A stretch of 49,338 nt of DNA from an uncultured bacterium (lineage in GTDB: Bacteria; UBP6; UBA1177), in assembly GCA_947305505.1 (NCBI GenBank), contig CAMZDX010000002.1, positions 1-49,338 on the forward strand. The letters are read 5' to 3'. Position 1 is the stretch's first letter. Every line of letters begins with the position of its first letter. The translations under genes and the position numbers were made by a program. Shown here piece by piece: positions 4,609-30,476 of the stretch. The notes under the pieces are model-generated. The model ran no database searches, had not been told where the DNA came from, and was given only the letters and a program-made list of their open reading frames with translations.

Positions 4609-5214
4609 CTACTGAAATTCAACTTCGCCATCATGTGTTTCATGCCGCATAAGAACACCCCGTACCCGTTCTTCGATTCCTGCAATCTCTTCGGCAGCAC
4701 TGATCCCGTAAATCTCATCGTAGTGCATCGGATCTCTCAGATCGACCATGTCCCATATCTCGTAATAGGAAGCTTCTTCAAGGCGGTAGATCTCCTCTTC
4801 AATCGGTTTGTATGCCTCCATACTGATGACCTTATCCGCAACCGTATTGACTTTTGTTATTGTCTCAACAAGTTTGACCTTTCTCTGATCGCCGAGTCTC
4901 TGCCAGATGCATGATTTCTCACCTATGTACGGATAAAGATCGTACTTTTTAAAATTAAGAAGTTCTGCAGGTTTGATCTCATTCTTTCCGTTCATGACCA
5001 AAATCTTTCCGTCGACCCATTCGAGACGTACTGATTCCCTGTTTTCGTTGAGACCGAATGTTACTTTCTTTACGACAGCGTCTTTTCTTTTCATAGTTTT
5101 TCTCCATTTGTTCTCTGTTGTTAAATCCTGATTTTCCGAAACATCACTGATGTTGTTGCTGAAACTGTTCATTTTTTTCTCCTCTTTTTCTGTTGTCACA
5201 GCTTTTGTTGTCAT
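4609..5214 (-). CDS. Hypothetical soluble protein, family E copy 1 (near-identical core to 14235..14723)
   Basis: GGAGG RBS at 5214. An internal start MKRKDAVV at 5094 (GGAG RBS) corresponds to the start of copy 2, so the N-terminal 40 residues are uncertain. Confidence 0.65.
   Translation of the reverse strand: MTTKAVTTEKEEKKMNSFSNNISDVSENQDLTTENKWRKTMKRKDAVVKKVTFGLNENRESVRLEWVDGKILVMNGKNEIKPAELLNFKKYDLYPYIGEKSCIWQRLGDQRKVKLVETITKVNTVADKVISMEAYKPIEEEIYRLEEASYYEIWDMVDLRDPMHYDEIYGISAAEEIAGIEERVRGVLMRHETHDGEVEFQ
4665..4908. repeat. Near-identical dispersed repeat, copy 1 (partner 14278..14521)
   Basis: Hand alignment finds only 2 mismatches (4702, 4861) over 244 bp. The flanks are clearly more diverged. 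Confidence 0.85.
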
Positions 5215-6708: not shown

Positions 6709-7050
6709 TGGTGGAGGCGGCGGGAATCGAAACCGCGTCCAACCTGAGGAACAACGAAACTTCTACATGCTTAGCTGTCCGTTTTGATAAGTGCTTCGGC
6801 TCCCGGCAGCAGGATCCCCGCACTGTCTCGCATTAGGTTTCGCGGTTTCAGTCATGCGAAAAACTTTCACCGCTATCCCGCTATTAGACGCCCTGCTTCG
6901 CTGTCACGGGAAAACAAGCGAGAGGACGGGCCTTCAGTCGGCCAACGAGCTTTTTACGCTGCGTTTCTGGATTGCCGCTTTTTACGAGGCCAGCGGCACC
7001 TCGGCATGCGATAACGAGGTTCAGCCAGGCTGTCGAAACCTGGCGCCCCC
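6709..7050 (-). ncRNA. ssrA: tmRNA (transfer-messenger RNA)
   Basis: The 5' end is GGGGGCGCCAGGTTTCGACAGCC. The 3' end is GGACGCGGTTTCGATTCCCGCCGCCTCCACCA. Acceptor stem is 7 bp with G3-U70. PK1-like pairing UGCCGCU/AGCGGCA. 342 nt. Confidence 0.93.
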
Positions 7051-7076: not shown

Positions 7077-7107
7077 ATATAAAGCGGTGAAAGTCGGATT
7101 TTTCCGG
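7077..7107 (-). promoter_or_regulatory. Cassette-type bipartite motif upstream of ssrA (CCGGAAAAAT-N13-CTTTATAT)
   Basis: Same spacing as the cassette copies. The downstream half is closer to TATAAT. Confidence 0.5.
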
Positions 7108-9283: not shown

Positions 9284-9310
9284 CGTTTCCTCCAAAAAAC
9301 GCCATCAATA

Positions 9311-9341
9311 CTCTAAAGCTGAAAATTCCGCTGAATTCCGA
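9311..9341 (-). promoter_or_regulatory. Degenerate cassette-type motif upstream of nrdG (TCGGAATTCA-N13-CTTTAGAG)
   Basis: Correct 13-nt spacing, but both halves are weaker. Confidence 0.3.
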
Positions 9342-10015
9342 GTTCTCCGGTAAATTTTTCCGATTTGCGGAAAAGCGGTCTCGGCTCAGGCAGCAGATTT
9401 GAAACCAGCTTCTCCGACAAAGTTAATAAACAAACACATGCACGCTTACCGCACCGCGTTCCGAGGCTCTTCCTTCACAGACGCACACAGAGCCGCAGCG
9501 AAAGCGCGCATCACCTTCGGCAACAGGCGAAACTGCACAGTTTCCCTCTTGCGAAGGCTGAAAACTTCTCCGGCCGGCATCACCTCCTTTACTTGGAAGC
9601 GCCGAACATGGACTATGTGGTTACTTGGTAGATTCTCCCTCTACTCTGAATTCATTCTTAAGAAACATTCCTTGTTTCCGCAGAGTTACTAAACTTGCCG
9701 ATTTCGTAGAATCTTTGATGATGTGTGTGGAACTTTCTGACCCTTTTAATGATTTGTAAAACGATAAACTTTTAGGCGCTGTTTCGAGCCCCATCGACCC
9801 GCAACAGTTATACTGCGCAATTTCAGAAACTAGACCGCCCAGCCTCGATTTTATGTAGTATTTCTTAAACATGGGCGGCACGCTACCCGGTTTCAGACGA
9901 ATGTCAAGCGAATTTTCAAGATTTTTTAAAAAAGTTGATAACAGACTGTAATTATTATATTTTTTCAACTAGAAAACCGTGTTTTTTTCAAAAACGGAAT
10001 ATAAATTTCGCTGAT

Positions 10016-11086
10016 TTATACCGACGGAGTCATGAAAACTCTCCAGTATCCGCGGTCATCTTTTTCGATGTATCCGTTTTTCTGCAGCGACTGCAGTATC
10101 TTCTGCAATGCGGAGCGGTTTATCCCGATCTCATTCTGCAGATAAGACAGCGTTGCCTGAGGTTCGATCTGAAGTTCACGTAGAATTTTTCCAGTTGTAG
10201 GAGTCCTGAAAGATACGCGCTCACCGTCATACCACCAGACATTTTCATCTTTTTCAGTCACGAAAAGAATGTCGTTTTCAACTTCGTGCGTTATCAGTTC
10301 GACCATGTATTTGTGGAAGGGGCGGATACTTTTCAAAGGGGCTTTCACTCCGTCTGACGGTACCGCTCCAACGATCAGATCAGCGCGGTGCAGCGCGTCA
10401 AGATACTCCTGCTTCAGGCGGCTGCGCACAACTATCATGGGAAGATCATGCCTTGAAAGAATATAGTTGACCATAAGTCTCGCAATACGACCGTTGCCGT
10501 CCTCGAACGGATGAATACGGATAAACCTGTAATGAAATAAAACCGCCAAGTCTACCGGCGAAAACAAGCCTTCCTGCTCCGCCTTATTGTACCAGTCCAC
10601 CAGATCGGCCATAAATGCCGGCGTTTCCTCGGGAGACGCATAATCGAAACGCTCGCCGTATCTTGTTATGACGCTGTTCGGACGGGTCTTGTACTGCCCC
10701 GCGTGGACTGTATACCCAACTTGCATCCCGTCAGGAAGCGTGTGCGAAACATCGTAATCCCCGCGTATCAAAGTTTTGTGCAGAGCCCTGATAAAATTCT
10801 GAGTAAGCGGCTGATGCGCTTCGGCAGCCTCATTCAGCATCATTTTCAAACCGAGATCGCTTGCCTTCATCTCCTCGTATTCACGAAAATCTGCCGTGCC
10901 TATCACTTTGTCAAAAAGCAGAAGCAGTTCCGTCTGCCCGTAAGTTAAGGTGTTTCCTTCAATGTGGTTGCTGTTGTAGTTGAAATCGACCGTGAAACGG
11001 CGGCTCAATCTCCCCTTGTCGGTTTCGGAAAGCGGCTGCAGCTTCTGCCATTTGTCCAAAGCACTCAAAAGTTTCTTGTTTTCCAT
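10016..11086 (-). CDS. fic: Fic-family protein with C-terminal winged-helix domain
   Basis: Fic motif HPFEDGNGRIARL. Start moved to MENKKLL (GGAGG 5 nt upstream). Confidence 0.9.
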   Translation of the reverse strand: MENKKLLSALDKWQKLQPLSETDKGRLSRRFTVDFNYNSNHIEGNTLTYGQTELLLLFDKVIGTADFREYEEMKASDLGLKMMLNEAAEAHQPLTQNFIRALHKTLIRGDYDVSHTLPDGMQVGYTVHAGQYKTRPNSVITRYGERFDYASPEETPAFMADLVDWYNKAEQEGLFSPVDLAVLFHYRFIRIHPFEDGNGRIARLMVNYILSRHDLPMIVVRSRLKQEYLDALHRADLIVGAVPSDGVKAPLKSIRPFHKYMVELITHEVENDILFVTEKDENVWWYDGERVSFRTPTTGKILRELQIEPQATLSYLQNEIGINRSALQKILQSLQKNGYIEKDDRGYWRVFMTPSV

Positions 11087-11106
11087 AAAAACCTCCACAC
11101 CACTAT

Positions 11107-11131
11107 TTAAGGTGGTAACATTACCACTTAA
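11107..11131. promoter_or_regulatory. Operator-like palindrome 1 (GTGGTAA-CA-TTACCAC)
   Basis: Perfect 7+7 inverted repeat at 11112..11127, overlapping the putative fic -10 element (11130..11135) at its edge and covering the start-site region. Confidence 0.5.
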
Positions 11132-11158
11132 AATAGCATTTCTTTGTTATGCATGCAA
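11130..11158 (-). promoter_or_regulatory. Putative sigma-70 promoter of fic (TTGCAT-N17-TATTTT)
   Basis: Read on the minus strand. Lies between the two operator-like palindromes. Confidence 0.4.
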
Positions 11159-11182
11159 GATTTTTTGTTAAAAACCACCAAA

Positions 11183-11206
11183 TAAGGTGGTAACATTACC
11201 ACTAAA
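11183..11206. promoter_or_regulatory. Operator-like palindrome 2 (GTGGTAA-CA-TTACCAC)
   Basis: Identical 16-bp core at 11187..11202. On the RNA it also overlaps an ACCACC/GGTGGT hairpin followed by TTTTT. Confidence 0.5.
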
Positions 11207-11248
11207 AACGCCGCTTTTGATTGTATATGCAGATTTTCTGATGAAAAA

Positions 11249-11787: not shown

Positions 11788-11818
11788 TCTTAAAGCGTCT
11801 GACTTTCAGTTTTTCCGG
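11788..11818 (-). promoter_or_regulatory. Cassette bipartite motif (CCGGAAAAAC-N13-CTTTAAGA)
   Basis: Minus-strand reading. Overlaps the last codons of 11790..12749. Confidence 0.5.
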
Positions 11819-12749
11819 ATTTTTGTTCTTTTTTGTATGCCGCCCTGGCAAGTTCAATGACTTCAGCTTCTCTGAGATCGCTCAACGCACACGAAATAGG
11901 GTTTTCCCAATGACCGAACTTGGAATACTTCCGATCTATCTGCCTGAGATCCAGTTTGTCGTTCCATGCGCAAAGTGCTGCTCCGCAAGGAGATTCATCT
12001 ATGTAGACAAAGTCGGCAAAACCATATAAAAACATTCGGTATTTCGATATTCTGTGCGGCATTTCTTCAGAAAGGTAGAATATATCGATCCCGATATCAT
12101 CAAGTGTTATCCGCTTCCCGTGTTCTTCAGCCCATTTTGCGACATTTTGATAGTCTATTTCATGAATCCAACAGTGTATCCTCAACTTAATTTTTGAATA
12201 GAGAGCCTTTAATCTGGAGACACGCATCTTTTTTACCTTAATCTTGTGATCAATGGCCTTTCCGTAGGATTTTCTTTCCCTGCCCTCTTTTATCCAATAG
12301 AAAATATCTTCGTCAGAAGTCTCTCTCGGGAACGATGCGAAGTAGCTGGACGGAGCCGTTGTAAGAACATCTTCATCTATTCTGCAAAGATCGATATTGC
12401 CCTCCATGCACAATTTTTTATCGCCGATAACTTTTGTTTCACCATTTTGCCTGAATACACTGAGAGGAATTTTTTCAGATTTCATCTTTTCTCTAAGAAC
12501 TTTATTTACCGGGTTTCCGACATGAATCAAGCGGTATGCAATAAAAGAAGGTGAATGTCCGAGGAGAAGTCTTTCTGGAGCTTCATTATTGCAGAAAATG
12601 ACTTTGACACCGGAACATTCTATGATTTCCGCATTCTCTTCGACCCATTTTTTCGCCTCATATAAACGGATCTTGTCAAGGTCCTTACCGAAAAGTTTAA
12701 AAACGATGCTTTTGACATCCATCCAAAACTGATTCATCGAAATTCCCAT
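11790..12749 (-). CDS. Hypothetical 319-aa protein, family F copy 1 (internally duplicated)
   Basis: KIRLYEAKKWVEENAEII resembles KWRLDKAKKWVAKHTEVI in 17945..18913. A second A.KW.EEH-type segment occurs mid-protein. AGGAGG RBS. Confidence 0.65.
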   Translation of the reverse strand: MGISMNQFWMDVKSIVFKLFGKDLDKIRLYEAKKWVEENAEIIECSGVKVIFCNNEAPERLLLGHSPSFIAYRLIHVGNPVNKVLREKMKSEKIPLSVFRQNGETKVIGDKKLCMEGNIDLCRIDEDVLTTAPSSYFASFPRETSDEDIFYWIKEGRERKSYGKAIDHKIKVKKMRVSRLKALYSKIKLRIHCWIHEIDYQNVAKWAEEHGKRITLDDIGIDIFYLSEEMPHRISKYRMFLYGFADFVYIDESPCGAALCAWNDKLDLRQIDRKYSKFGHWENPISCALSDLREAEVIELARAAYKKEQKSGKTESQTL

Positions 12750-12790
12750 ACTGACCTCCTAAAAATTCTTAAAATCAACCAAAACCGATT

Positions 12791-12821
12791 AGTTAAAGTG
12801 TCTGATTTTCAGTTTTTCCGG
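12791..12821 (-). promoter_or_regulatory. Cassette bipartite motif (CCGGAAAAAC-N13-CTTTAACT)
   Basis: Minus-strand reading, downstream of mini-tmRNA 1 and upstream of the ATG at 12749. Confidence 0.5.
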
Positions 12822-12848
12822 ATTTTTTTATGAAAAACAGAAAAAAAC

Positions 12849-12960
12849 TGGTGGAGACGGCGGGAATCGAACCCGCGTCCTGAACGCCGGGCATAAGCCC
12901 GATCCATCGCCGGCCGGAACCGGTTAAGGTTTAACGCCCAGTCTAAACCATGTCATCCCC
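12849..12960 (-). ncRNA. tmRNA-derived tRNA-like-domain-only RNA (mini-tmRNA 1), 112 nt
   Basis: The 5' end GGGGAUGACAUGGUUUAGACUGGGCG resembles a tmRNA 5' end. The 3' end is CGUUCAGGACGCGGGUUCGAUUCCCGCCGUCUCCACCA. Acceptor stem is 7 bp with G3-U70. P2a-like pairing CUGGGCG/CGUUCAG. No mRNA-like domain. Confidence 0.7.
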
Positions 12961-12976
12961 AAAGAACACACATATA

Positions 12977-13006
12977 ATATAAAGGGATAAATTCAGATTT
13001 TTCCGG
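12977..13006 (-). promoter_or_regulatory. Cassette-type motif upstream of mini-tmRNA 1 (CCGGAAAAA-N13-CTTTATAT)
   Basis: The CTTTATAT box ends 16 nt before the predicted RNA 5' end. Confidence 0.45.
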
Positions 13007-13057: not shown

Positions 13058-13711
13058 TCAGGAAACTATTTCCAGCATTTTGTTCGCTATTTGAATTTGA
13101 CTTGATTCAGCAACTCCCGTTTTACACCAAAGTGCGAAATGTTCGCAGTTGCGCCACGGTCGCCAGCCCTCCTTTCCCCCTTTGAAACCCTTTTTCCCGA
13201 TTTCTCTTTCGGCGTTTCTTAAAGTTTCTTCAGGCGAGTAAAAGTGGTATTTTCTGATTCTATCATGTACTCGTTGACCTATTTTCAGAGGCGGAAGATT
13301 CTCAATGTATTCATTAAATCCGTCAAAATCTACAGCGAATACTTTATCTTCACCTTTGAACCGATAAAACGAATCCTTGCGGACGGATACTTCCCCGCTG
13401 AAAGAATCGTCGCGCCCGTTGGAGAAGTGGATAACTTCCAAGTTTCCTGCATATATCCCGTAATGGTCATAAGCGTTTATCCCTTTGACGGGCTTTCTGT
13501 GGACGCCTATTACGTCGCCAGGTTTAAGCTGCCGCCAGTCTGAAACACGGCATTTAAAACCGGATGGAGTTTCGTAAGAGACAACATACTTAATAACTTT
13601 GGGAACAACAATCACAGCTATGGCTACACCTACACTGGCAGGCGAAATACATAGTGCACCTGCTGGCGAAACAACTGCATTTCCCAACGTTTTTGTCATC
13701 ACTTTTAACAT
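13058..13711 (-). CDS. LRAT / NlpC-P60 superfamily (NC-domain) protein with N-terminal membrane anchor; paralog of 1180..1782
   Basis: YDHYGIYAG and NCEHFALWCKTG boxes. GGAGGAGG RBS. Confidence 0.75.
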   Translation of the reverse strand: MLKVMTKTLGNAVVSPAGALCISPASVGVAIAVIVVPKVIKYVVSYETPSGFKCRVSDWRQLKPGDVIGVHRKPVKGINAYDHYGIYAGNLEVIHFSNGRDDSFSGEVSVRKDSFYRFKGEDKVFAVDFDGFNEYIENLPPLKIGQRVHDRIRKYHFYSPEETLRNAEREIGKKGFKGGKEGWRPWRNCEHFALWCKTGVAESSQIQIANKMLEIVS

Positions 13712-14225: not shown

Positions 14226-14234
14226 GTTTACCTC

Positions 14235-14723
14235 CTAAAATTCAACTTTAACATCATTTGTTTCATGCTGCATAAGAACCGCCTGTGCCCGTTCTTCGAT
14301 TCCTGCAATCTCTTCGGCAGCACTAATCCCGTAAATCTCATCGTAGTGCATCGGATCTCTCAGATCGACCATGTCCCATATCTCGTAATAGGAAGCTTCT
14401 TCAAGGCGGTAGATCTCCTCTTCAATCGGTTTGTATGCCTCCATACTGATGACCTTATCCGCAACCGTATTGACTTTTGTTATCGTCTCAACAAGTTTGA
14501 CCTTTCTCTGATCGCCGAGTCTCTGCCAGATACATGATTTTTCACCGAGGTACGGATAGAGGTCGTACTTCTTGAAATTGAGAAGTTCCTCCGGTTTGAT
14601 CTCATTCTTTCCGTTCATGACCAAAATTTTTCCGTCGACCCATTCGAGACGTACTGATTCTCTGTTTGTGTTAAGGCCGAATGTTACTTTTTTTACGATT
14701 GCGTCTTTCTTTCTGTTAAGCAT
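14235..14723 (-). CDS. Hypothetical soluble protein, family E copy 2
   Basis: Near-identical to the C-terminal 160 residues of 4609..5214. GGAGAG RBS. Confidence 0.7.
   Translation of the reverse strand: MLNRKKDAIVKKVTFGLNTNRESVRLEWVDGKILVMNGKNEIKPEELLNFKKYDLYPYLGEKSCIWQRLGDQRKVKLVETITKVNTVADKVISMEAYKPIEEEIYRLEEASYYEIWDMVDLRDPMHYDEIYGISAAEEIAGIEERAQAVLMQHETNDVKVEF
14278..14521. repeat. Near-identical dispersed repeat, copy 2 (partner 4665..4908)
   Basis: Same alignment, constant offset of 9613 bp. Confidence 0.85.
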
Positions 14724-19938: not shown

Positions 19939-20051
19939 TGGTGGAGACGGCGGGAATCGAACCCGCGTCCTGAACGCCGGGGCCTAAGCCCGATCCTTCG
20001 CCGGCCGGAACCGGTTCAGGTTTAATGCCCAGTCAAAACCATGTCATCCCC
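19939..20051 (-). ncRNA. tmRNA-derived tRNA-like-domain-only RNA (mini-tmRNA 2), 113 nt
   Basis: Differs from copy 1 by 5 substitutions and one 1-nt indel. None of these falls in the acceptor stem or T-arm. The hairpin CGGGC-UUAU-GCCCG becomes GGGC-UUAG-GCCC. Confidence 0.65.
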
Positions 20052-20094: not shown

Positions 20095-20541
20095 TCATTT
20101 TTTAGCATCTTTCAGCATACTTATGATCACGTCTAAAGGTGTGCCGGGAATAAAGATTGCACAGGCAGGAAGCGCTGTCCGGCAGCACTTCCCTATCATT
20201 TTTTCCATATTATATTTTTCAGAGTCATACCCCGGCTTCCACCATTCGCAGCTTACAGCATAGCAGCCGTACTTGGTATAGTTTCCCACGATCTCCAACT
20301 TGGGATTGCTTTTTCTTCGCTGTGTCGCATAGTTAAGAAAATCGTTTATATCACAGTACCACGGAAACTTCTTGGTGCACATCAGAGCCTCACACTCTTC
20401 CGAGACGACTACCTTTCTCACAATATCCGGGTCATTCAGCATCTTCTTTCTCAATCTCGGTTTGATTGCAAAATAGATGATTGCCGCAAGAATCCCCGTA
20501 GACGCCGCACTCATCAAAGCATTCAACAAAATGTCGTTCAT
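20095..20541 (-). CDS. Hypothetical 148-aa Cys-rich protein with N-terminal TM helix
   Basis: AGGAGA RBS with a cassette motif upstream. The stop lies 43 nt before mini-tmRNA 2. Confidence 0.6.
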   Translation of the reverse strand: MNDILLNALMSAASTGILAAIIYFAIKPRLRKKMLNDPDIVRKVVVSEECEALMCTKKFPWYCDINDFLNYATQRRKSNPKLEIVGNYTKYGCYAVSCEWWKPGYDSEKYNMEKMIGKCCRTALPACAIFIPGTPLDVIISMLKDAKK

Positions 20542-20583: not shown

Positions 20584-20615
20584 TCTTAAAGCGGTGAAGT
20601 TTCGTTTTTTTCCGG
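20584..20615 (-). promoter_or_regulatory. Cassette bipartite motif (CCGGAAAAAAA-N13-CTTTAAGA)
   Basis: Minus-strand reading, upstream of the ATG at 20541. Confidence 0.5.
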
Positions 20616-20735
20616 ATTTTCAGGCGCTTTTTTGACAAATTTTTCAGAAACGTCTGATAGATGATGTTTTTTATTGGACAAAACACGCTGTTTTTCTATG
20701 CTTTTGCGACTAAAACGGATTGGAAGAGGTGTAAA

Positions 20736-23700
20736 ATGGCTGGAAAAAAGAATAAAAATGCTATGATGATAGTAGGGGCGACCCCGGGTGTTGTTCTTGG
20801 TCTTGTGGCATTTATAATCTCACTGACGGATACACAAGGTTTTATAGTTGCTTTTATAATTGGATTTATTGTGTTTGCTGTACTTGCACCGTTGGGAGCC
20901 TTTTTAGCCTTGTTTATAATACCATTATTAGTGTTTGTGGGCCATGTTCTTCATATTCATTCTTTGGAGCAACTTCAACCTGATGATGATATCCCTGAAA
21001 AAAAGGAAGAGTTCTTTGATTCTATAGAACGCATGTTAAGTCCGATATATACAAGTAAAATAGGTAAAATTGACAGAGCCATTATTGCAATCAAAAAATC
21101 CCGTGATGGTAAGCAGCGCAGAGAGGAATATCTGGATCGGATATGCTTGGATAGAGCAAAAAAATTTGCCGAATTTTACAAATATTCATCAAAACAGGTT
21201 CCTGCTGAAAACTCTGAATATGATAAGGCTTTAAAAAACTGGTTTATTTTTCAAAATTATGATCTTGCAAACGAATTTTTTCAAAATTCCATAGAAAAAG
21301 AGGAAAGCTGTCGTAAACTTGTGATATGTGACTATGTAAATTTCATATCTCAAACGGAAGGAGAAGAACAAGCCGTCAGAAAATTGGAAGAATATATAAA
21401 ATTATATGGGCAAAAGACCGAATTCTTTGAAAAAGCTGTAACTTTATACTCTCAAACAAATAATTTAGAGAAATTACAAGCAAGTCTGAATCGTTTGATA
21501 AACGACAAATCGGATCCAAACAGAGAACAAAATCTTGGAAGATGGCTTTTAAGACGGGCTGACTGTGAATACAGACTCGGTTATTTTGAAAAATCAATTG
21601 AGACTGCCAAAAAAGCTTACGATGCTAAGTGTTGGAAAGTCGGATATGCGAAACAGATCGTTGATTCATACATAGCCATTGGAAAATATGATGAAGCCAA
21701 AAAAAGCATAGATAAGAAATTTTTATTTGATAAAATATATTCCATATTAACAGATAGAATCAGAATCGCTGAAAAAAACAGCTATAATGCGGAAAACAGA
21801 TCTGTTTTTTATTCAGACGATGAGTTTGTAGAGAGCGTTATGGCTCAGCACCGGAATATTATTATCAAAACCATGACTCCCGTGGATGAATATACGCTCA
21901 AGTTCATTCTGAAAAAGATAGAGACAAATCAAAAAGATCTAGATAAAATTTGTGAAAGAATGCTTACTGCAGCCTATATAACAAAACATCTTTACGGTAA
22001 AACCGAGAAATATTATGAGTATATTTCCAAAGGTTTGTTCTACTGTTCACAAAAATATAAAAGTTCAAGTTATTGTTTAAGTGCCATCAAAGCCTCCACT
22101 ATGATCAAAGACGATCAAATAGAGGAACAGGCGCTGCGGAGTTATTTTTTAAATGTGCCTAAATATGCGTTGAGGAAATTAGAAGCTTATGTAATGGATA
22201 ACAATGCACCGCACGGCGTTTACAGTGAATCTCAGATAATTCAAATAATTAAGTACAGCCGTATATGCAGAAAATATTATGAAAGCAAAAAGATAAGTTG
22301 TGAGAATATAGACAAAAGATTTGACGATGCAGAGAGAAAATTTAAAGATTGGCTTGACGCAGTCAGAAAAAATGCCGATTTTAAGGAAGATTTAAAAAAT
22401 GCAGCTGATGAAGTGAAAAACTCTGTTCTAACATTCGATTCTGATAAAGAATTTATGGATTTATATATCGCAAAAATCTCTAAAATGGATGAGTTTTATA
22501 AATATGATGATTTCGACAACCGCAACCACATCGTATCTCAGGTTTTAAATGAATTGAAAAGATTGAAATCTAATGCGAAAGATTTCAATATGACAATATT
22601 TACTGAAAATTATCTTGCAAAAATCCTTTCTGCAACGATAGACAATTTAGAGAAAATCACTGAAAGGACCCGGAATGATTTTGCAACAAAAATCATAATA
22701 GATGTGCCTGAAAACAAACTTAGCCTGGATGAAAACAACGACGTAATATTCTCAGTAAATATCAGTAATACTGCCAACAGAGCACCTGCCCAAGAAATGA
22801 AACTGCTTATTGAAGATTTGTCCGGAAAAGAAATTTTTAAAAAAGATTTTTCAGAAAAAAATCTGACGGCAGGCGCTTCAATATCGGAACTTATAAAATT
22901 CAATATTAAAGACATTATTAAAGATAAAGCGGCTGTTGGTGTAAGAATAAAAGTTTCCTACAAAGGCGGTTTCGTTGAAATGTTGAAACAACTGACGATT
23001 GATTCGGATGATTTTGAGGAGATTAGAGACCCCTATATTGCAGGAAGTGTTGTCGAAAAAGACAAGATGTTCTTTGGAAGAGATGAATTGATTGGAAGAT
23101 TGGCAAGATCGCTGAAAAACGACACGACACGCTGTGTTGTTATTTACGGGCAGAAGCGTTCAGGCAAATCATCGATATTCTATCATCTCAAACGAAAACT
23201 TGAAGACAAGTTTATTATTCTTGATTTTACTGCCGGTTCAGGCATTACAAGTGAACAAAATTTTTATACCCAGGTCAGAAATATATTGTCAGAATATCTG
23301 GAAGACAACGATTTCGACAGCAGAATTATTGAAGAATTTAAGCATTTTGATATTTCAGAGTACTTGGATTTCGAACAATTTCTACGTAAAGTCAATCGAG
23401 AGATCTGCAAACCTGCTAATAAAGAGCTTTTGCTTATGATTGACGAGTTTACTAAAATATATGATTACATTAAAAACGACCATGTTTTCACTGAAAATTT
23501 TATGGATAAGTGGAAAGCCATGTCTGAACGGAATCTTTTTAAGTCTGCATTGATCGGTCAGGACAATATGCCTGAATTTATAAGGGCTTATCCAAATCAG
23601 TTCCAGGTTACAGAACTGATACGTGTTTCCTATCTTGAAAAAAGATATGCCATTGATCTGATAACCAAGCCGATACTTTTGAGTGGCGGCAAAAACAGAT

Positions 23701-24101
23701 ATTTGGAGGGCGCAGAAGAAAAGATCGCTGACTGGTTCAATGGCCAGCCGTTTTTTATCCAAAAATACTGTAAAAAACTGGTTAAGTATTTAGACCTGGA
23801 ACATGAAAGTTATATAACTTTAGCCGTTGCAGAAAATGTTAAAAACGAACTGCTTTCAGAATTTATGGACTCTGATTTCGATAATTTAGTTTATCAAGAA
23901 GAAAGTGAAGATTTTTGGAATGTACTTAAAAAGATAGCTTCTTCCGATGTCGAGGATGTTCCGCTTGATCTTTCGACTTTAAATGATGCGGAAAAATATG
24001 CTTTGGCCAAGTTAACAGACAGGGATGTTATTACTAAAAAGCAGGACAGATACCAAATCAAGATACCTTTTTTTAGAGAATGGATAAGAGAATATAAATA
24101 A
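20736..24101 (+). CDS. Membrane-anchored TPR / Ig-like / P-loop NTPase protein (gene A of three-gene operon)
   Basis: Start moved to MAGKKNK (AGAGGTG RBS). Two to three N-terminal TM helices, then a helical-repeat region. An Ig/CARDB-like segment (DVIFSVNISNTANRAP...VGVRIKVSYKGG). Walker A GQKRSGKSS and Walker B LLLMIDEF. Confidence 0.75.
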   Translation: MAGKKNKNAMMIVGATPGVVLGLVAFIISLTDTQGFIVAFIIGFIVFAVLAPLGAFLALFIIPLLVFVGHVLHIHSLEQLQPDDDIPEKKEEFFDSIERMLSPIYTSKIGKIDRAIIAIKKSRDGKQRREEYLDRICLDRAKKFAEFYKYSSKQVPAENSEYDKALKNWFIFQNYDLANEFFQNSIEKEESCRKLVICDYVNFISQTEGEEQAVRKLEEYIKLYGQKTEFFEKAVTLYSQTNNLEKLQASLNRLINDKSDPNREQNLGRWLLRRADCEYRLGYFEKSIETAKKAYDAKCWKVGYAKQIVDSYIAIGKYDEAKKSIDKKFLFDKIYSILTDRIRIAEKNSYNAENRSVFYSDDEFVESVMAQHRNIIIKTMTPVDEYTLKFILKKIETNQKDLDKICERMLTAAYITKHLYGKTEKYYEYISKGLFYCSQKYKSSSYCLSAIKASTMIKDDQIEEQALRSYFLNVPKYALRKLEAYVMDNNAPHGVYSESQIIQIIKYSRICRKYYESKKISCENIDKRFDDAERKFKDWLDAVRKNADFKEDLKNAADEVKNSVLTFDSDKEFMDLYIAKISKMDEFYKYDDFDNRNHIVSQVLNELKRLKSNAKDFNMTIFTENYLAKILSATIDNLEKITERTRNDFATKIIIDVPENKLSLDENNDVIFSVNISNTANRAPAQEMKLLIEDLSGKEIFKKDFSEKNLTAGASISELIKFNIKDIIKDKAAVGVRIKVSYKGGFVEMLKQLTIDSDDFEEIRDPYIAGSVVEKDKMFFGRDELIGRLARSLKNDTTRCVVIYGQKRSGKSSIFYHLKRKLEDKFIILDFTAGSGITSEQNFYTQVRNILSEYLEDNDFDSRIIEEFKHFDISEYLDFEQFLRKVNREICKPANKELLLMIDEFTKIYDYIKNDHVFTENFMDKWKAMSERNLFKSALIGQDNMPEFIRAYPNQFQVTELIRVSYLEKRYAIDLITKPILLSGGKNRYLEGAEEKIADWFNGQPFFIQKYCKKLVKYLDLEHESYITLAVAENVKNELLSEFMDSDFDNLVYQEESEDFWNVLKKIASSDVEDVPLDLSTLNDAEKYALAKLTDRDVITKKQDRYQIKIPFFREWIREYK

Positions 24102-24112
24102 CGGAGAAAAAC

Positions 24113-25786
24113 ATGAAAAACAGGTTCGCAAATTACGGCAATACAATGAAAGGAGATTCCTATGTTCACAGGAACAAACTGGAAAAACAGTTGCTTGATA
24201 GAACGGTAAATTATGACGATTATGGTTCAGTGAACGTGGTCGGTTTACAGAGAATGGGAAAATCTTCTTTGGTTTATAATGCTTTAGAGGCAAAAGCTGA
24301 TGAATTTTACGAAAAGAATGTTGTTATTGCGAAAATATCGGCTAATGAAATACCGACTAATGAAATACCGACTACTGAGCCTAAGCCTAATCCTGCTGAC
24401 AAATTTTTTAAAGATATGGTTCAAGAAGTTTTTGAAGTTATGAAAGAACACAACGATGTTGATGAAATTCTGCAGAAACGTTATGAAGAATTTAAAAATG
24501 ACGACATTGTTAAAGAAGGCAGTTTTTCTTTGAGAAAGTTCTTTAAAAGGATAAAAAAATCAGATAAACGCGTTGTCATGATTATTGATGAGTTTGATTA
24601 TTCTGCAAAAATTTTCTCCGATTTTCCTGAGGGTTTTAATATTTTGAGACAGTTGGCTTATGAACCTGAAACCCATGTTGCTTTTATTTTTGTTTCAAGA
24701 AGGCGGGCAGAGTATTTGGAACGTAAATGTGAAGGTATATCGCCTTTTCACAATATTCTTGATTACGTATATGTGAAAGGATTTTCCGATGAGGAGTTGG
24801 AAGAATATTTCAAATGCTGCGAAAAATCAGGTGTCACTCTTGACGATAAAGAACGAGAAACTCTCAAATCCATTACCGGTGGTCAGCCCTATTGGTCTGA
24901 CATTATGCTTAAAGCTTATAAAGAAGAAAAAGAGAACAATGAAAATACAGATCTTGAAACTGTTTTTCATAAAAACATTGATAAATTTCACGGCAAATAT
25001 GGAGGATTCCAGCACACACTTGATTTGTTGGAAGAACAGGGGCTTCTGAACAAGCTTTATCAGATAGTATTCGGACCGATGGAACCTGACTGCACCAGAA
25101 GCGATATCCAGACTTTATATAATTACGGAATCATTGTTGATAAAGATAAATCAACTGTTATCTCAGACAAATTTTATGACTATCTGAAATCGAAAGAGCG
25201 TGAAGTTGATTTCTATCCTCTCTGGCACGAGACCGAGACGGGGTTAAGAAAAATACTCAAGAATAAACTGAAAATAAAAGAAGAGTACAAGCCTGATTGG
25301 GAAAGACATCTTATAGAAAGCTATCTTCTTAATGACCCAAAAGAACTAATGAAACTGCTCGAGATACATTTTTTTAAAAATCACATGGAAAACGATTACA
25401 TTTTACAATCACAAGATTCTAAGAGACCGTATTCCAAGAAAGATTATTATCTTTCGTACGATTTGGATGAGGCGATAAAGCAGAAAAACAGAATGCTGAA
25501 TAATAAAATTTGTTATGACAGCAACAAAGACATCACAATTGTTGAAGCCTTGTATACCAAAGGTCTATTTCTGCTCTATGATTTTGAGTATTCTAAACTT
25601 CAATTGGATAAAATATTCGGAGATAAGGATAAATTCGTTGAAAAGTCCATCCATCTAAGCAAGGCAAGAAATCCCTATCAGCATAACAACGAAGAATTGC
25701 TTAACGATGATTACAAAAAGAAGACAAAAGAATACTGCGAAGCTCTTTACAACAGTATAAGAGCATTTTTAGAAAACCAGAAATAG
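24113..25786 (+). CDS. P-loop NTPase fused to a Swt1-like HEPN domain (gene B)
   Basis: Walker A GLQRMGKSS and Walker B VVMIIDEFD. C-terminal HEPN motif ARNPYQH (R at 25667..25669, H at 25682..25684), preceded by WHETETGLRKILKNKL. GGAG RBS 11 nt after the gene A stop. Confidence 0.75.
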   Translation: MKNRFANYGNTMKGDSYVHRNKLEKQLLDRTVNYDDYGSVNVVGLQRMGKSSLVYNALEAKADEFYEKNVVIAKISANEIPTNEIPTTEPKPNPADKFFKDMVQEVFEVMKEHNDVDEILQKRYEEFKNDDIVKEGSFSLRKFFKRIKKSDKRVVMIIDEFDYSAKIFSDFPEGFNILRQLAYEPETHVAFIFVSRRRAEYLERKCEGISPFHNILDYVYVKGFSDEELEEYFKCCEKSGVTLDDKERETLKSITGGQPYWSDIMLKAYKEEKENNENTDLETVFHKNIDKFHGKYGGFQHTLDLLEEQGLLNKLYQIVFGPMEPDCTRSDIQTLYNYGIIVDKDKSTVISDKFYDYLKSKEREVDFYPLWHETETGLRKILKNKLKIKEEYKPDWERHLIESYLLNDPKELMKLLEIHFFKNHMENDYILQSQDSKRPYSKKDYYLSYDLDEAIKQKNRMLNNKICYDSNKDITIVEALYTKGLFLLYDFEYSKLQLDKIFGDKDKFVEKSIHLSKARNPYQHNNEELLNDDYKKKTKEYCEALYNSIRAFLENQK

Positions 25787-25798
25787 TGAGGTGAAATC

Positions 25799-28537
25799 AT
25801 GACGGAAAAAAACGAAAACGAACTTCTGCTTATAAAAGCGGCAGTTTATGCAGGTTTTACAATTTTAGTTTTGCAAGATGAATCTAAAAGATTAAAGAAA
25901 TTCGGAAGTTTCAATGGATATTTGAACCTATGCGGACAATTCGGAATTTATTTCAACCATATTAATAAATTGCAGAATGTGCAGCAAAATATTGATGATT
26001 TTAAGACACTTGTTTCCATATTAGATAGTTGCATAGCAAAAAAAGAAATAAATTCTGAGAGATATCAAGACTTTTTTGCGAATGCAAATAACTTTTTTCA
26101 GGAATTAAAGCCTTACGCCGAAGCTTATTATGAAGTTAAAACAAAAAATTTAAAATTGAACAAATTAGGTTTTTACTGCACAACCGGTAATCAAGCAGTT
26201 CCCAAACCTGCAGTTGTTAAAACACCTCAAGAAAATGCAATCACAAGCACCCAAGAACATACCAAAGAAAAAACAAATCCGATCGTTCCTGAGAAACATT
26301 CGGAAAACAGAGACTTATCGTCAAAAGTCAAGACGGAAGTTCCCAAGAACTCAAGTGGAAATTCGGTAAAAAAAATGAAACCGATTGACTTGGATAAGAA
26401 ACTTAAACCTGTTAAAAAGATAGCAAATATAAAATTCAACGATTTTACTGATTTTTCCGCTGATTCCGCAGAATTGAACATATACATTGATGAGGCATGG
26501 CCTTGGCCTGGTAAAGATTATAACACTTTTGTTCCTCAGAATCCTGATGATAAAAAGACAGGCGTTATTGCCGGAATAGTTTGGCTCGGAAGCGAAACAG
26601 ATCCCGAAATCCTGCCTAAAATAGGGACTCATTTGCGGGAAGAAATAAAACCATATAGTGATACAGGCAAACCTATTCCGGAACAAATTGAAAAAATTTT
26701 AATGCCACCTATCCAAAACCTGCTGAACTGTAAAAAAGCTATGCCTTTTATTTTTCCGTTAAATATTGAATCAGAAATAGATTGGCAAAATGACTACTTC
26801 CCTATTTTTGAAGCTGCGATTAAAATCCTTCTCGGCTGGGTTCTTCCTCAAAACGGTAAAAAATGCAATGTCTGCATATATCCTGAACATATAGGCAAAT
26901 TCGTTGATGGAAGAAGTAAGTCGGAATATTTCAGAGGAGTTCTTAGTCAGGCCATGAAAAATACCGGGCGTTTTTCCCGATTTAATATTAAAAAAGTCGA
27001 ATGGCAGGACAAAGAATTCGGATATATTCCTTACGGAGATCTGCTCGGCTATATGACATTGCCGATATACAATAGTCTTGTTTTTAAAAAAATGGCTCGA
27101 TGTGAAGAGCTTGCAGGTTATCTGCCGATTTCCATCGGACTGTTCGAACTGCTTTCAAGACTTGATATCATAGAGGAAACCAAAAATGTTGATGATATCT
27201 ACAATCTTATCGACAGCATTTACGGCACAAAAATTTACAATTTTATTATGTCGGATCTGAAAAAACGCTTGGAAAACAATGTCGAATTGAAAACGAAGAT
27301 CCTAGAGTCAATAGAAGCTAAATACTTGGCTAAAAACCGAGACTTGAGGAAGCTCCGCTGGTATTTCAAGGAAATCATGCCCTTTATAGAGTCTCTTGAA
27401 GAAACCGCAGACACAGTAACAAAACTTATGTTTACATCGGTAAGGCTTCAGGATGCGAACCACGAGGGAAATCCCGCTAAAATAGAAAAATATCTCGCGG
27501 ATTATGATGAAAAATGGGCAAAAGCGATTCAGTTGAGAGAATTTGAGATTGCAGCCGACTGTGAACTTCATCTTGCAGTCCACTACAACGATATGTTCCA
27601 GTTTGACAAAGCTTTTGAAACATTGAAAAGAAACGAAAAATATTTCGACTATTTCAAACTTCCGACTGTCGCCAAATTTTACAGCAGTTTGGGGCAGAAC
27701 AAGTCTATAAATAAGAATTTTGGCGAGGCGAAACGCTGGTTCGACAAGGCTCTGGAAGAGTTCAACAAATCGGAAGACCGCAACAAAGCCCTGGAAATCG
27801 AGCAGACTTCGGTTTACCGCCTTTTCAACGCATTGGAAGGCAACGATCCTGAATATCCAAAAATGTTCACCGGATTTTTCGGTACTTCACCTGAAATTGC
27901 CGCCAAATTCGCTAATGAAAATTCTGTAGCCGACCAGTACAAGCACCATCTTCTTGTCCGTTCTCTCTTCTCACGCAATGATCTCGGCGAATTCAAAACA
28001 GCCTATCTTGCAGAAAAGAAAAACTGGAATTTCCTCCCGCAGCATCCGTGGCAACTCATAGAATTTTACAGAGCGATGCTGGAAAACGACTCTGAAAAAT
28101 CTTACGTTCACATGAAAAATGCTTTGGCAATCTGTGAAAATGAAGAGCACGGCGGAGTAATTTATCTGATCGGAGCAGTGATCGCGGCAGCAGGAGCAAC
28201 AAAATTCACCGGAGACAAAAAAGAAGATCTTCAGCAAAAAGCTCTCGAATTTGTTGAAAAAGCAGAAAATATGCGCGTAGCCGGGAAAAAAACAGCAATG
28301 CTTAGCGAAAAAATAAAGGAAAATATTTATCTTATCGGAACAGTAATCGCGACAGCAGGAGCAACAAAATTCACCGGAGCAAAAAAAGAATTCCTTCAGA
28401 AAAAAGCAACCGAATTTGCGGAAAAAGCAGAAAGTATGCGTGTTGCGGGAAGTGCTGCGGCAATGCTTAGCGAAAAAATAAAGGAAAATTGCGGAATTGA
28501 AAATATTCTGGAGATTTTACCGTTTAATTACAGATAG
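25799..28537 (+). CDS. Large protein with a DUF3800-like central region and C-terminal TPR-like repeats (gene C)
   Basis: GAGGTG RBS 12 nt after the gene B stop. LNIYIDEAW...GVIAGIVW...IPYGDLLGYM weakly resembles the DUF3800 pattern. The C-terminal half is helical-repeat and ends in a 55-aa tandem duplication. Confidence 0.7.
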   Translation: MTEKNENELLLIKAAVYAGFTILVLQDESKRLKKFGSFNGYLNLCGQFGIYFNHINKLQNVQQNIDDFKTLVSILDSCIAKKEINSERYQDFFANANNFFQELKPYAEAYYEVKTKNLKLNKLGFYCTTGNQAVPKPAVVKTPQENAITSTQEHTKEKTNPIVPEKHSENRDLSSKVKTEVPKNSSGNSVKKMKPIDLDKKLKPVKKIANIKFNDFTDFSADSAELNIYIDEAWPWPGKDYNTFVPQNPDDKKTGVIAGIVWLGSETDPEILPKIGTHLREEIKPYSDTGKPIPEQIEKILMPPIQNLLNCKKAMPFIFPLNIESEIDWQNDYFPIFEAAIKILLGWVLPQNGKKCNVCIYPEHIGKFVDGRSKSEYFRGVLSQAMKNTGRFSRFNIKKVEWQDKEFGYIPYGDLLGYMTLPIYNSLVFKKMARCEELAGYLPISIGLFELLSRLDIIEETKNVDDIYNLIDSIYGTKIYNFIMSDLKKRLENNVELKTKILESIEAKYLAKNRDLRKLRWYFKEIMPFIESLEETADTVTKLMFTSVRLQDANHEGNPAKIEKYLADYDEKWAKAIQLREFEIAADCELHLAVHYNDMFQFDKAFETLKRNEKYFDYFKLPTVAKFYSSLGQNKSINKNFGEAKRWFDKALEEFNKSEDRNKALEIEQTSVYRLFNALEGNDPEYPKMFTGFFGTSPEIAAKFANENSVADQYKHHLLVRSLFSRNDLGEFKTAYLAEKKNWNFLPQHPWQLIEFYRAMLENDSEKSYVHMKNALAICENEEHGGVIYLIGAVIAAAGATKFTGDKKEDLQQKALEFVEKAENMRVAGKKTAMLSEKIKENIYLIGTVIATAGATKFTGAKKEFLQKKATEFAEKAESMRVAGSAAAMLSEKIKENCGIENILEILPFNYR
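28160..28489 (+). repeat. 165-bp in-frame tandem duplication (2 units) inside gene C
   Basis: The units 28160..28324 and 28325..28489 encode IYLIGAVIAAAGATKFTGDKKE...MLSEKIKEN and IYLIGTVIATAGATKFTGAKKE...MLSEKIKEN. Confidence 0.9.
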
Positions 28538-28580
28538 TGGCCGCCTGTGAATAAGTTTGCGGTAAGGACAATCTAAAAAA

Positions 28581-29834
28581 TCATAACTCCAACTTATTCA
28601 AAAGGGTTTCTACAGCTTTTTTCCCTTCTTCATAGACTTTCGGAATGTCAGCCACTGACGGAAGTTTGCCTGTTATATCTTTTGCACCTCCGTGGGCGAC
28701 ATTGTTCCTGCGATGTCCAAGATTTTCTAATTCCGGATATATTTTCGCCTTTCTTACGGCTCTATTTAAACACGTTTTTCCATGATCCTGCCACCATACA
28801 TAGTCTCCGATACTCTTTCCGCCTGCTTCACCGAACTTTTCCGCAATCGCAGTTTCGACCGTATTCTGAAGAGTGATTACGGCCTGGGTCTTGAGATCGT
28901 GTTCATACAAATAGGCTGAATAATTATAAAGCGTTCGTGACAATGAGCGCTGATCTTCCAGTTTTATCACCTCTTGCAAAGGAACTTTGATTTTTTCGAT
29001 CCATACCGGCGAGCCTTCAGGAACACATTCTAATGCAGATTGAATCTTTCTGATTACATCCGGCAGCTGAAGGGCAAAATTAGCCTGAACTATATCAGAC
29101 ATGAATTCTACTGCACCAGCCCCCTGAGGCCATTCAGGTTTTATCAACCTGGCCAAAGTAAAACCGTCCAATTTTTTGATAAAAACCTGTAATGCTGCCG
29201 AAATCTGCGAATAACGCCAGTATTCGCTCAAATTTCTTGCATACGCCGGTTTATCCTTGCTGGTAAACTCGCCATATACAAGCTCAATTTTTCTTTCGGC
29301 ATCATCTGAAAAATGGTATTGCATTGCCTGATAAAAAAGCATCGGCATCGATCTGAATCCGTGGGTCATATCGAAAAGGACATCGTTGTTTTCCTTGATA
29401 ATAGGATAAATGGAACTGTAGCATTCAAAAAGTTCCCGAACATGATCCTGATCAACCAGCGGAGTGTGCACTTTGATAGTCACCGGAATGCCGAAACGCC
29501 TTTCGAGATAGGTTTCCAGCTCTGTTCTCAACGATTCCGTTATACCTTTTTTAATTCCGTCTTTTTCTGTAGAGGCCTCCTTCAGTTCTTCCCATAGTTC
29601 TGCATCTTTTTCCGTAAGCTCCTCATCTTCAGCCTTCACCAGAGCATCCCATGACGAAGTTTCAGTTCCGATAACAATAAGTTGGTCAATATTTCTGTAT
29701 TTTCCCTTCAGCAGAGCTTCCATAAAGAGTCTTGTTTTAAAATGCTGCGTTTCGCTCAAAAAGTAATCAGTTTCGACATATCCTTCTTTCTTATACATGC
29801 CCGTTCCGACAGATGTGATCAATGTGTAAGCCAT
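28581..29834 (-). CDS. csx1: Csx1/Csm6-family CARF-HEPN protein (DxTHG type)
   Basis: N-terminal LITSVGTG...LIVIGTETS, DxTHG motif FDMTHGFR, and C-terminal HEPN motif HRRNNVAHGG. GGGAG RBS. Confidence 0.8.
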   Translation of the reverse strand: MAYTLITSVGTGMYKKEGYVETDYFLSETQHFKTRLFMEALLKGKYRNIDQLIVIGTETSSWDALVKAEDEELTEKDAELWEELKEASTEKDGIKKGITESLRTELETYLERRFGIPVTIKVHTPLVDQDHVRELFECYSSIYPIIKENNDVLFDMTHGFRSMPMLFYQAMQYHFSDDAERKIELVYGEFTSKDKPAYARNLSEYWRYSQISAALQVFIKKLDGFTLARLIKPEWPQGAGAVEFMSDIVQANFALQLPDVIRKIQSALECVPEGSPVWIEKIKVPLQEVIKLEDQRSLSRTLYNYSAYLYEHDLKTQAVITLQNTVETAIAEKFGEAGGKSIGDYVWWQDHGKTCLNRAVRKAKIYPELENLGHRRNNVAHGGAKDITGKLPSVADIPKVYEEGKKAVETLLNKLEL

Positions 29835-30175: not shown

Positions 30176-30232
30176 TCTCTGCAAAACACCAACGAAATCA
30201 AAGCCTTAACAGTAGAGACGTAACCTGATACG

Positions 30233-30476
30233 TCTCAAATTGGAGCCCGGGTTCTGCCTACATTAAACTAAGTGTTTAATAATATTTTATTTGGAGGTGA
30301 ACATTTCAACCAGAGCCCGGGTTCTGCCTACATTAAACTGTTGAATCTATAAAGGATCTTGGTGACAAAGGTTTCAACCAGAGCCCGGGTTCTGCCTACA
30401 TTAAACAAAGAACTGGTCACGTTTCGATAAAGGGATCACTGTTTCAACCAGAGCCCGGGTTCTGCCTACCTGTAAC
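30233..30476 (-). CRISPR. CRISPR array: four 36-bp repeats, three spacers of 34/32/34 bp
   Basis: Plus-strand repeat is GTTTCAACCAGAGCCCGGGTTCTGCCTACATTAAAC, at 30233 (degenerate), 30303, 30371 and 30441 (degenerate end). Strand is tentative: the minus-strand reading ends in GTTGAAAC. Confidence 0.85.

Follow-up and report, generated by a model that had tools for sequence, protein, structure and literature searches.

A tmRNA paralogue reduced to its tRNA-like domain near a complete ssrA gene on the chromosome of an uncultured bacterium

Can a transfer-messenger RNA (tmRNA) gene that has lost its whole coding part be kept on a bacterial chromosome that also carries a complete ssrA gene, and what might such an RNA do there? 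The question is raised by a 49,338-nt stretch of DNA from an uncultured bacterium (contig CAMZDX010000002.1 of assembly GCA_947305505.1), here called the window, in which a 112-nt element on the minus strand at 12849-12960, mini-tmRNA 1 (mini 1), resembles a tmRNA of which only the tRNA-like domain (TLD) is left. A second such element, mini-tmRNA 2 (mini 2), and a full-length ssrA are encoded on the same strand, the minis lying 6-13 kb from ssrA. The analysis described here establishes that mini 1 is a genuine tmRNA derivative retaining only the TLD. It is probably maintained by selection and a function is plausible, with a young non-functional deletion derivative as a serious alternative.

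Read from 12960 to 12849, mini 1 has the sequence GGGGAUGACAUGGUUUAGACUGGGCGUUAAACCUUAACCGGUUCCGGCCGGCGAUGGAUCGGGCUUAUGCCCGGCGUUCAGGACGCGGGUUCGAUUCCCGCCGUCUCCACCA, starting with GGGGAUGACAUGGUUUAGACUGGGCG and ending with CGUUCAGGACGCGGGUUCGAUUCCCGCCGUCUCCACCA. The Rfam tmRNA model RF00023 matches this sequence with 70.1 bits (E=2.4e-25; gathering score 47) from model position 1 to 374. The gathering threshold is therefore passed with both ends of the model matched, while 282 internal model positions are deleted and replaced by 22 unaligned bases; chance is excluded as the source of this match. Within Rfam clan CL00001, the best model for mini 1 is tmRNA, not tRNA. A first-pass annotation of this DNA had proposed a 112-nt, TLD-only tmRNA and had suggested a search with the tmRNA model, and the end-to-end match above the gathering score bears that proposal out. 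The 5′-strand of the acceptor stem, GGGGAUG (12954-12960), carries the G3 of a G3·U70 pair and pairs at seven of seven positions with 12853-12859. The 3′-strand, CGUCUCC, is followed by the discriminator A and an encoded CCA (12849-12859 for the three together). Next to the 5′-strand is the D-loop analogue ACAUGGUUUAGA (12942-12953; RF00023 positions 8-20), with the GG...GAC motif of tmRNA TLDs; it reads GGUUUAGAC in mini 1, position 17 being A or U depending on the allele. Helix P2a, supported by the fold and by pairing across alleles, is formed by CUGGGCGU (12934-12941) and GCGUUCAG (12880-12887) and has 8 bp, C20-U27 with G74-G81. The T-arm, GCGGG-UUCGAUU-CCCGC (12860-12876), has a perfect 5-bp stem and is the same in every allele. 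All of these elements, listed in the first-pass annotation, are present where it had placed them. Immediately 3′ to the CCA there is a terminator-like T-rich run, GUUUUUUUCUGUUUUU (12833-12848), and runs resembling it also follow mini 2 and ssrA.

The 46 nt between the P2a strands (12888-12933), identified from the fold and the allele alignment, occupy the place of pseudoknots PK1-PK4 and the tag open reading frame (ORF). They form two simple hairpins, the short insert that had been anticipated, and none of the four pseudoknots is present. No resume codon, tag ORF or stop codon is conserved across mini 1, mini 2 and the allele from metagenome locus L011 introduced below, as the first-pass annotation had also concluded for mini 1; the AUG in mini 1 is missing from mini 2. 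The tmRNA-like fold is the minimum free energy (MFE) structure of mini 1. ARAGORN, suggested as a further check, called no tRNA or tmRNA at either mini, and it did not call the full ssrA either. An identity as tRNA-Ala was considered and rejected, as mini 1 has no D stem and no anticodon loop and ARAGORN found no tRNA. With a tmRNA-type TLD, a short closing P2 stem and no coding domain, mini 1 has the features that define TLD-only, or coding-sequence-less (CDS-less), tmRNAs. All the sequence determinants for RNase P processing, for recognition by the alanyl-tRNA synthetase AlaRS (G3·U70 and A73) and for contact with SmpB (the GAC/GGAC elbow) are intact.

Mini 2 (19939-20051, minus strand) has 113 nt, is 94% identical to mini 1 and scores 72.7 bits with RF00023. 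The full-length ssrA (6709-7050, minus strand), with pseudoknots, scores 151 bits. Its acceptor stem is GGGGGCG/CGCCUCC versus GGGGAUG/CGUCUCC in the minis, so that both bases of pair 5 have changed, from G-C to A-U, and one base of pair 6, from C-G to U-G, and the 3′-terminal 32 nt of the minis differ from ssrA by one base. The sequence GCA GCG UAA (6954-6962, minus strand), 10 nt past PK1 and at the aligned resume-codon position of ssrA, probably encodes an Ala-Ala tag of 2 aa, which is probably also why ARAGORN misses this gene. Such 2-aa Ala-Ala tags have been reported for 25 tmRNAs, mostly from Fermentibacterota (PMC11915505). A G to U change at 6732 breaks the fifth pair of the T-stem in the window ssrA (GCGGU...CCCGC). 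A mutation of this strain or an error in the sequence could account for it; the ssrA of the same species in loci L045 and L046 has GCGGG, a perfect T-stem, and scores 161 bits versus 151 in the window.

Mini 1 is preceded, 16 nt upstream, by a promoter-like box, CCGGAAAAA-N13-CTTTATAT (12977-13006, minus strand; motif match 12979-13004). Another copy lies downstream of mini 1, before the ORF at 11790-12749 (12793-12819, minus strand), and one with N14 is upstream of ssrA (7079-7105, minus strand). As GGAAAAA-N12-16-CTTTAW, the motif is present in 13 copies between 5255 and 20613, every one of them on the minus strand, against a chance expectation of 0.16. Most ORFs of the region, as well as ssrA and mini 1, have it in front, often together with a conserved 5′-untranslated region (5′-UTR) and GGAGG, and so the box is not a promoter peculiar to tmRNA genes. 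It ends in CTTTAT before ssrA and mini 1 and in CTTTAA in the other eleven copies, and it also occurs twice in locus L043 of a sister species. The box noted in the first-pass annotation, and its likeness to the one before ssrA, therefore stand, but as members of an island-wide motif. The box is a putative promoter and is not sigma-70-like; a scan for sigma-70 promoters and terminators returned counts at the shuffled expectation. Mini 2 lacks a dedicated box and is located 43 nt downstream of ORF148 (20095-20541, minus strand), a gene for a small protein with a membrane anchor that has its own box at 20586-20613, and it is probably co-transcribed with this gene. ORF148 was considered as a divergent SmpB-like partner and rejected; its product has a transmembrane helix at the N-terminus, and neither Pfam nor PDB gave a significant match.

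Relatives were sought in genome, viral and metagenome collections with a structural DNA pattern in which the 5′-strand of the acceptor and the D-loop analogue are separated from the T-arm by 40-70 nt. Among the pattern matches listed, L011 and L028, both metagenome loci, carry a third mini allele. A single homologue was found for ORF148 (P0001), and it led to two short contigs, L036 and L037, with the L011-type allele at the same position. The mini directly follows ORF148 in all four, which are from independent metagenome assemblies and carry orthologues of mini 2. Its recurrence in five independent assemblies shows that the mini is no artefact of assembly. Loci L045 and L046, which belong to the same species (NrdD 97% identical), have the order NrdG-NrdD-ssrA. 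In the sister species (L038-L044 and L047; NrdD 80-87%), flanks of up to 10 kb per side have no tmRNA-like match with E<0.01, and L038-L042 have dNK-NrdG-NrdD-~125aa-MYG1-DUF4230, collinear with the window, with ~125 nt after NrdD. As this cluster is conserved in sister species without tmRNA-like genes, it is ordinary chromosomal DNA to which the three tmRNA-like genes were added in one species-level lineage. From the ORF148-mini site to NrdG, the window, L011 and L036 have different sets of genes, and the region around the minis is recombination-prone. The rearrangement breakpoints fall inside the repeated box/5′-UTR units and not at either end of a mini.

Two origins that the first-pass annotation had named as ways in which its reading could fail are ruled out. 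An att duplication is inconsistent with a 5′-half that is present and pairs with the 3′-half. Pfam searches of the sizeable ORFs between 212 and 29834 and of ten larger ORFs at 30.7-48.4 kb, together with PHROGs and PADLOC searches of island ORFs, found no integrase, transposase, recombinase or phage structural gene, and no integrase, transposase or recombinase was found in L011. An origin as an att site or island end is also at odds with breakpoints between the window and L011 that are not at the mini ends and with flanking genes that are chromosomal in the sister species. Fragments of tmRNA genes left by genomic islands, like the minis, place extra tmRNA-like sequence in a variable region close to ssrA, but they are 3′-pieces beside an integrase, whereas the minis keep both pairing ends and there is no integrase in the window. 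Mini 1 is also not half of a permuted two-piece tmRNA. The permuted model, RF04321, reaches 28.1 bits (gathering score 47) at 12709-12888 and matches the T-arm only, and mini 1 is followed by the ORF at 11790-12749, with no coding piece of a permuted tmRNA. Nor was a phage donor found. The matches listed from scans of viral contigs with the mini 5′-end were all permuted phage tmRNAs with normal tag ORFs, an insert-specific pattern matched unrelated coding DNA, and in BLAST searches of GenBank phages only the universal T-arm matched. The permuted two-piece phage tmRNAs in L050-L053 (IMG/VR) have exactly the 5′-acceptor sequence of the window minis, GGGGAUGACAUGGUUU, probably through convergence on a common TLD sequence.

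Tag-less tmRNAs have precedents. Mycobacteriophage DS6A is listed with a 'TLD only' tmRNA (Hudson et al. 2014, PMC4131195), which we located at 28478-28560 of JN698994 (83 nt, RF00023 43 bits; tmRNA Website ID 11587, 'Phage__Mycobacterium.9'). It resembles the minis in its standard order, acceptor stem, D-loop analogue, short P2 and T-arm, in having no pseudoknots or tag ORF, and in matching RF00023 end to end with a large internal deletion. The DS6A copy is, however, phage-borne and single, with an insert of ~20 nt and an end in ACUA with no encoded ACCA, whereas the window minis are chromosomal, in two copies and beside a full ssrA, with the 46-nt two-hairpin insert and an encoded CCA. There is no similarity to DS6A outside the universally conserved TLD, so the origin is independent. 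CDS-less tmRNAs are also known from plastids, and in two groups of bacteria tag frames may be missing (Nawrocki et al. 2025, PMC11915505). The organellar forms (jakobid and oomycete mitochondria; ~65 bp in the Mallomonadaceae plastid) have, like the minis, an alanine-accepting TLD and no tag frame (PMC11915505), but each is the sole tmRNA of a reduced genome and is much shorter, whereas the minis are extra copies beside a complete tmRNA. With a standard RF00023 tmRNA the minis have in common the homologous ends, G3·U70, the T-loop UUCGAUU, the GAC/GGAC elbow and P2a; unlike it, they have no PK1-PK4, resume codon, tag ORF or stop codon and cannot act as an mRNA. Chromosomal TLD-only paralogues beside a complete ssrA are not reported in the literature searched, including under 'mini-tmRNA'. 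The minis are thus a new chromosomal, duplicated, ssrA-coexisting variant of a form that was already known, and the novelty that the first-pass annotation attached to them is overstated in view of DS6A, the mitochondrial and plastid forms and the other short tmRNA-like families described below.

Are the minis maintained or simply young? Three distinct alleles (mini 1, mini 2 and the L011-type) can be compared. Between the window and L036/L011, identity is 89-92% in ORF148, 95% in the upstream spacer and 73-75% in the downstream intergenic DNA, so that the flanks differ by 5-27%, and 93.8% in the mini. All 7 differences in the mini fall within columns 17-71; columns 1-16 and 73-113 (57 nt) have none (P=0.0025 at 10% divergence, with boundaries set post hoc). 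Over the three alleles, 2 of the 66 columns of the TLD and P2a are variable versus 7 of the 47 of the insert (Fisher p=0.03); conservation is higher in the TLD than in either the insert or the flanks. With the proposed partners, 99% of the cells compared are paired, versus 36-57% with slid partners. Acceptor and T-arm pairs are formed in all three alleles (100%), P2a pairs in 95.8% of cells, and three one-sided changes in the insert hairpins keep a pair (U-G to U-A, C-G to U-G and G-C to G-U). The random decay that would have spoken against function is not seen in the acceptor stems and T-arm, which are unchanged in the three alleles. The A5-U, U6-G acceptor allele is fixed in all minis, so they are not simply homogenised with ssrA. 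The argument for selection that the first-pass annotation drew from the paired acceptor changes depends on one double change relative to ssrA, that of pair 5, pair 6 being changed on one side. A picture of unselected decay in this lineage is provided by L011, in which an internally deleted ssrA copy (4894-5036, minus strand) lies 160 nt downstream of the intact mini. This remnant consists of the first 58 nt and last ~100 nt of ssrA; it has lost the segment from PK1 to the P2 3′-strand, has acquired mismatched pairs in both the T and the acceptor stem and, at 34 bits, falls below threshold. The L011 mini and remnant in tandem give 46.8 bits with the permuted-tmRNA model, purely from their arrangement.

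Several observations weigh against selective maintenance. The L011 remnant itself shows that non-functional deletion derivatives arise here. The check for covariation over homologues, proposed earlier, could draw on only the three alleles, all from one species-level lineage, and found no double compensatory change, so that a shuffle control has no power. One change, resulting in an A·C in P2a of mini 2, breaks a pair. The tmRNA-like fold is 8.1 kcal/mol above the MFE in mini 2 and 4.8 kcal/mol above it in the L011 allele, and the folding z-scores (-1.1 and -0.3) are not significant; thermodynamic folding was not used as support. Change in the insert runs at a near-neutral pace, part of the conservation of the 3′-terminal 32 nt could be due to gene conversion among copies, and the sister species have no such gene at this locus. 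These observations lead to the possible, although less likely, explanation that ssrA was duplicated and suffered internal deletions, and that the resulting relics, without function, look intact as they are recent and as conversion keeps their 3′-terminal 32 nt uniform. The decaying copy in L011 and the restriction of the family to one lineage are as expected for relics, as are the near-neutral insert and the lack of double compensatory changes, and downstream modules have indeed been exchanged between copies: the DNA downstream of mini 2 and ssrA is 87% identical and the L011 mini resembles mini 1 downstream. Relics would not, however, be expected to have acceptor strands, D-loop analogue and T-arm unchanged in three alleles amid flanks so diverged, and conversion by ssrA fails for the 5′-half, in which the minis have their own acceptor allele. 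Both paralogues are intact although ~12% diverged in the insert, and a decayed remnant only 160 nt from an intact mini argues that decay is not uniformly slow in this lineage.

We tentatively prefer, with a little less than even confidence, the reading that the minis are intact, selectively maintained TLD-only tmRNA derivatives whose most likely role is to compete with or modulate ribosome rescue. Mini 1 would be transcribed from the island-type box 16 nt upstream and mini 2 as the 3′-part of the ORF148 transcript. RNase P would cut at G1, and the 3′-end would require only trimming to the encoded CCA. The RNA could then be charged with alanine by AlaRS through G3·U70 and A73 and bound by SmpB at the GAC/GGAC elbow and by EF-Tu, and so draw SmpB, AlaRS, EF-Tu or the A sites of stalled ribosomes away from full-length tmRNA. 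Each of these steps, and the direction of any effect on rescue, is predicted from sequence. With no resume codon, tag frame or stop codon a mini cannot complete canonical trans-translation, which makes a competitor or modulator the most likely role. A further reason is that a TLD-only molecule similar to that of DS6A is reported to be strongly inhibitory: Hudson et al. cite Mao et al. 2009 for inhibition of tmRNA, perhaps by titration of SmpB (PMC4131195), and two papers give the inhibited target as the endogenous tmRNA of E. coli (PMC4131195, PMC11915505).

The same anatomy would serve a productive rescuer without a tag, in which an alanylated mini with SmpB enters a stalled ribosome and accepts the nascent chain, and the ribosome is released untagged through drop-off of the peptidyl-RNA and hydrolysis by Pth or an ArfB-like factor. 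A tag-less release model has been proposed for CDS-less mitochondrial tmRNAs. The tag of the resident tmRNA is only 2 aa, so tagging seems to be minor in this lineage, and organellar CDS-less tmRNAs co-occur with SmpB (PMC11915505). We consider this improbable, as the minis have no stop codon and no efficient release route is known, a full-length tmRNA is present with no apparent need for a second rescuer, and the sole experimental report on a molecule of this type, cited in the two papers, is of inhibition and not of rescue (PMC4131195, PMC11915505). Effects in cis are more doubtful still. A mini might recruit RNase P or RNase Z, or terminate transcription, and so fix the 3′-end of the preceding mRNA and shield the promoter that follows. 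The position of mini 2 after ORF148 with no own box would fit, as would the order of tmRNA-like gene, T-run and next box at all three genes; but a simple hairpin terminator would suffice, mini 1 has its own box, and the AlaRS identity elements, encoded CCA and D-loop analogue would be left unexplained. Least probable of these readings is a site for attachment or recombination in cassette exchange, conserved as DNA rather than as RNA. Genes for tmRNA are classic integration sites of islands (PMC4131195, PMC11915505), the window, L011 and L036 have different cargo after the mini, and each tmRNA-like gene is at a module boundary. Set against this, the scanned ORFs of the window and L011 encode no recombination enzyme of the kinds sought, att duplications retain the 3′-part only whereas both halves are here kept and pair, the insertion breakpoints between the window and L011 are away from the mini ends, the cargo differences begin in the promoter/5′-UTR repeats and not in the mini, and the surrounding NrdGD-MYG1-DUF4230 genes are conserved chromosomal DNA in the sister species.

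The pattern scans also identified at least about a dozen other families of tmRNA-like sequences of 100-120 nt with seven of seven acceptor pairs and G3·U70 (L008, L017, L029, L032, L013, L009, L010, L016, L020, L023, L003, L019, L024, L035, L025, L027, L001, L002, L012, L018, L022, L026 and L030), after false positives had been removed by ARAGORN and a check of acceptor pairing. Several belong to tRNA gene arrays with 6-16 members or to viral contigs of IMG/VR. They resemble the minis in length, in their tmRNA-type D-loop analogue and T-arm and in having no tag domain, but have different inserts and mostly a phage or tRNA-array context (L009 and L010 viral; L008 and L013 in tRNA arrays). Several have no encoded CCA, and none is close to the window family. 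In one five-member family that includes viral contigs (L009, L010, L016, L020 and L023), 6 of 27 pairs have double compensatory changes, which indicates that the TLD-only class includes bona fide structured RNAs. As a class, TLD-only tmRNAs seem to be genuine, to recur, mainly in phages, and to be recorded too seldom. Two further cases are likely assembly artefacts: L007 (4791-4892, a Pseudescherichia metagenome-assembled genome) has a tmRNA of the E. coli type from which a large internal part is deleted, and the 'mini' in L005 is interrupted by Ns.

The surroundings are those of a bacterial chromosome, with rimP-nusA-infB-like genes and PBP1A at 35-43 kb and a GC content of 43%. NusA places the organism in a deep lineage, with identities of 64-97% within the clade and at most 53% outside. 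All genes from 212 to 20541 are on the minus strand. In the order of transcription, ORF148 and mini 2 are followed by nine small ORFs (from a DUF4230 protein to an LRAT/NlpC-like protein), then by mini 1, ORFs of 319 aa and 137 aa, a Fic/winged helix-turn-helix protein, a 115-aa ORF, NrdG and NrdD, and finally by ssrA, a 118-aa ORF, a MYG1-like gene, unannotated small ORFs, two DUF4230 genes, an LRAT-like gene and an ABC ATPase. PHROGs gave no match for ten unannotated ORFs at 9.6-18.9 kb, and exact-protein look-ups for three window proteins returned no record. Internal duplications of cassette genes are recent: a 300-nt block is 96% identical between 4609-4908 and 14232-14531, and the LRAT/NlpC-like paralogues at 1180-1782 and 13058-13711 are 83-97% identical in blocks. 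The Fic protein (10016-11098) matches the SoFic/PDC-S04 models of PADLOC. Just upstream of its gene are two 35-nt direct repeats (11099-11133 and 11174-11208), each with a perfect palindrome, GTGGTAACATTACCAC, probably an operator for autoregulation. A GC-rich non-coding stretch of ~320 nt upstream of NrdG (9300-9620, minus strand) has no Rfam match, is not at this position in L011, and could be a leader or regulatory RNA. Two STAND-type NTPases are encoded at 20661-25786 and a CARF-HEPN Csx1 at 28581-29834. Beside the Csx1 gene is a CRISPR array (30221-30476) with four ~36-nt repeats, GTTTAATGTAGGCAGAACCCGGGCTCTGGTTGAAAC, and a period of 68-70 nt. Two 108-nt repeats in L011 (4428-4679) resemble a degenerate end or leader of this array, and in the sister-species locus L038 a full type III-B cas operon lies upstream of the NrdGD cluster.

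What would the minis mean for this organism? An unlikely, further-reaching reading is that they are regulated inhibitors or decoys of trans-translation, expressed under the island motif in a hypervariable cluster flanked by defence genes (CRISPR/Csx1, the STAND NTPases, the SoFic-like Fic protein and membrane-protein cassettes), and members, with the other mini families, of a class that is widespread yet overlooked in phage-host conflict. If that were so, the cell would deliberately lower rescue, for example to starve tmRNA-dependent phages, or the minis would soak up factors that target tmRNA or SmpB, a cellular counterpart of the apparent strategy of DS6A. In the literature searched, TLD-only and CDS-less tmRNAs are confined to DS6A and organelles, plus the two bacterial groups that possibly have no tag frame, and the pattern scans suggest that minis are far commoner than tmRNA databases show, especially in the tRNA arrays of phages. 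The 2-aa tag of the ssrA in this lineage is relevant to the question of how much of its mRNA function a tmRNA can give up. With minis beside a complete ssrA, the lineage provides a natural system for the role of a tag-less tmRNA where trans-translation persists, and one that also bears on competition for SmpB or the A site as a means of regulation.

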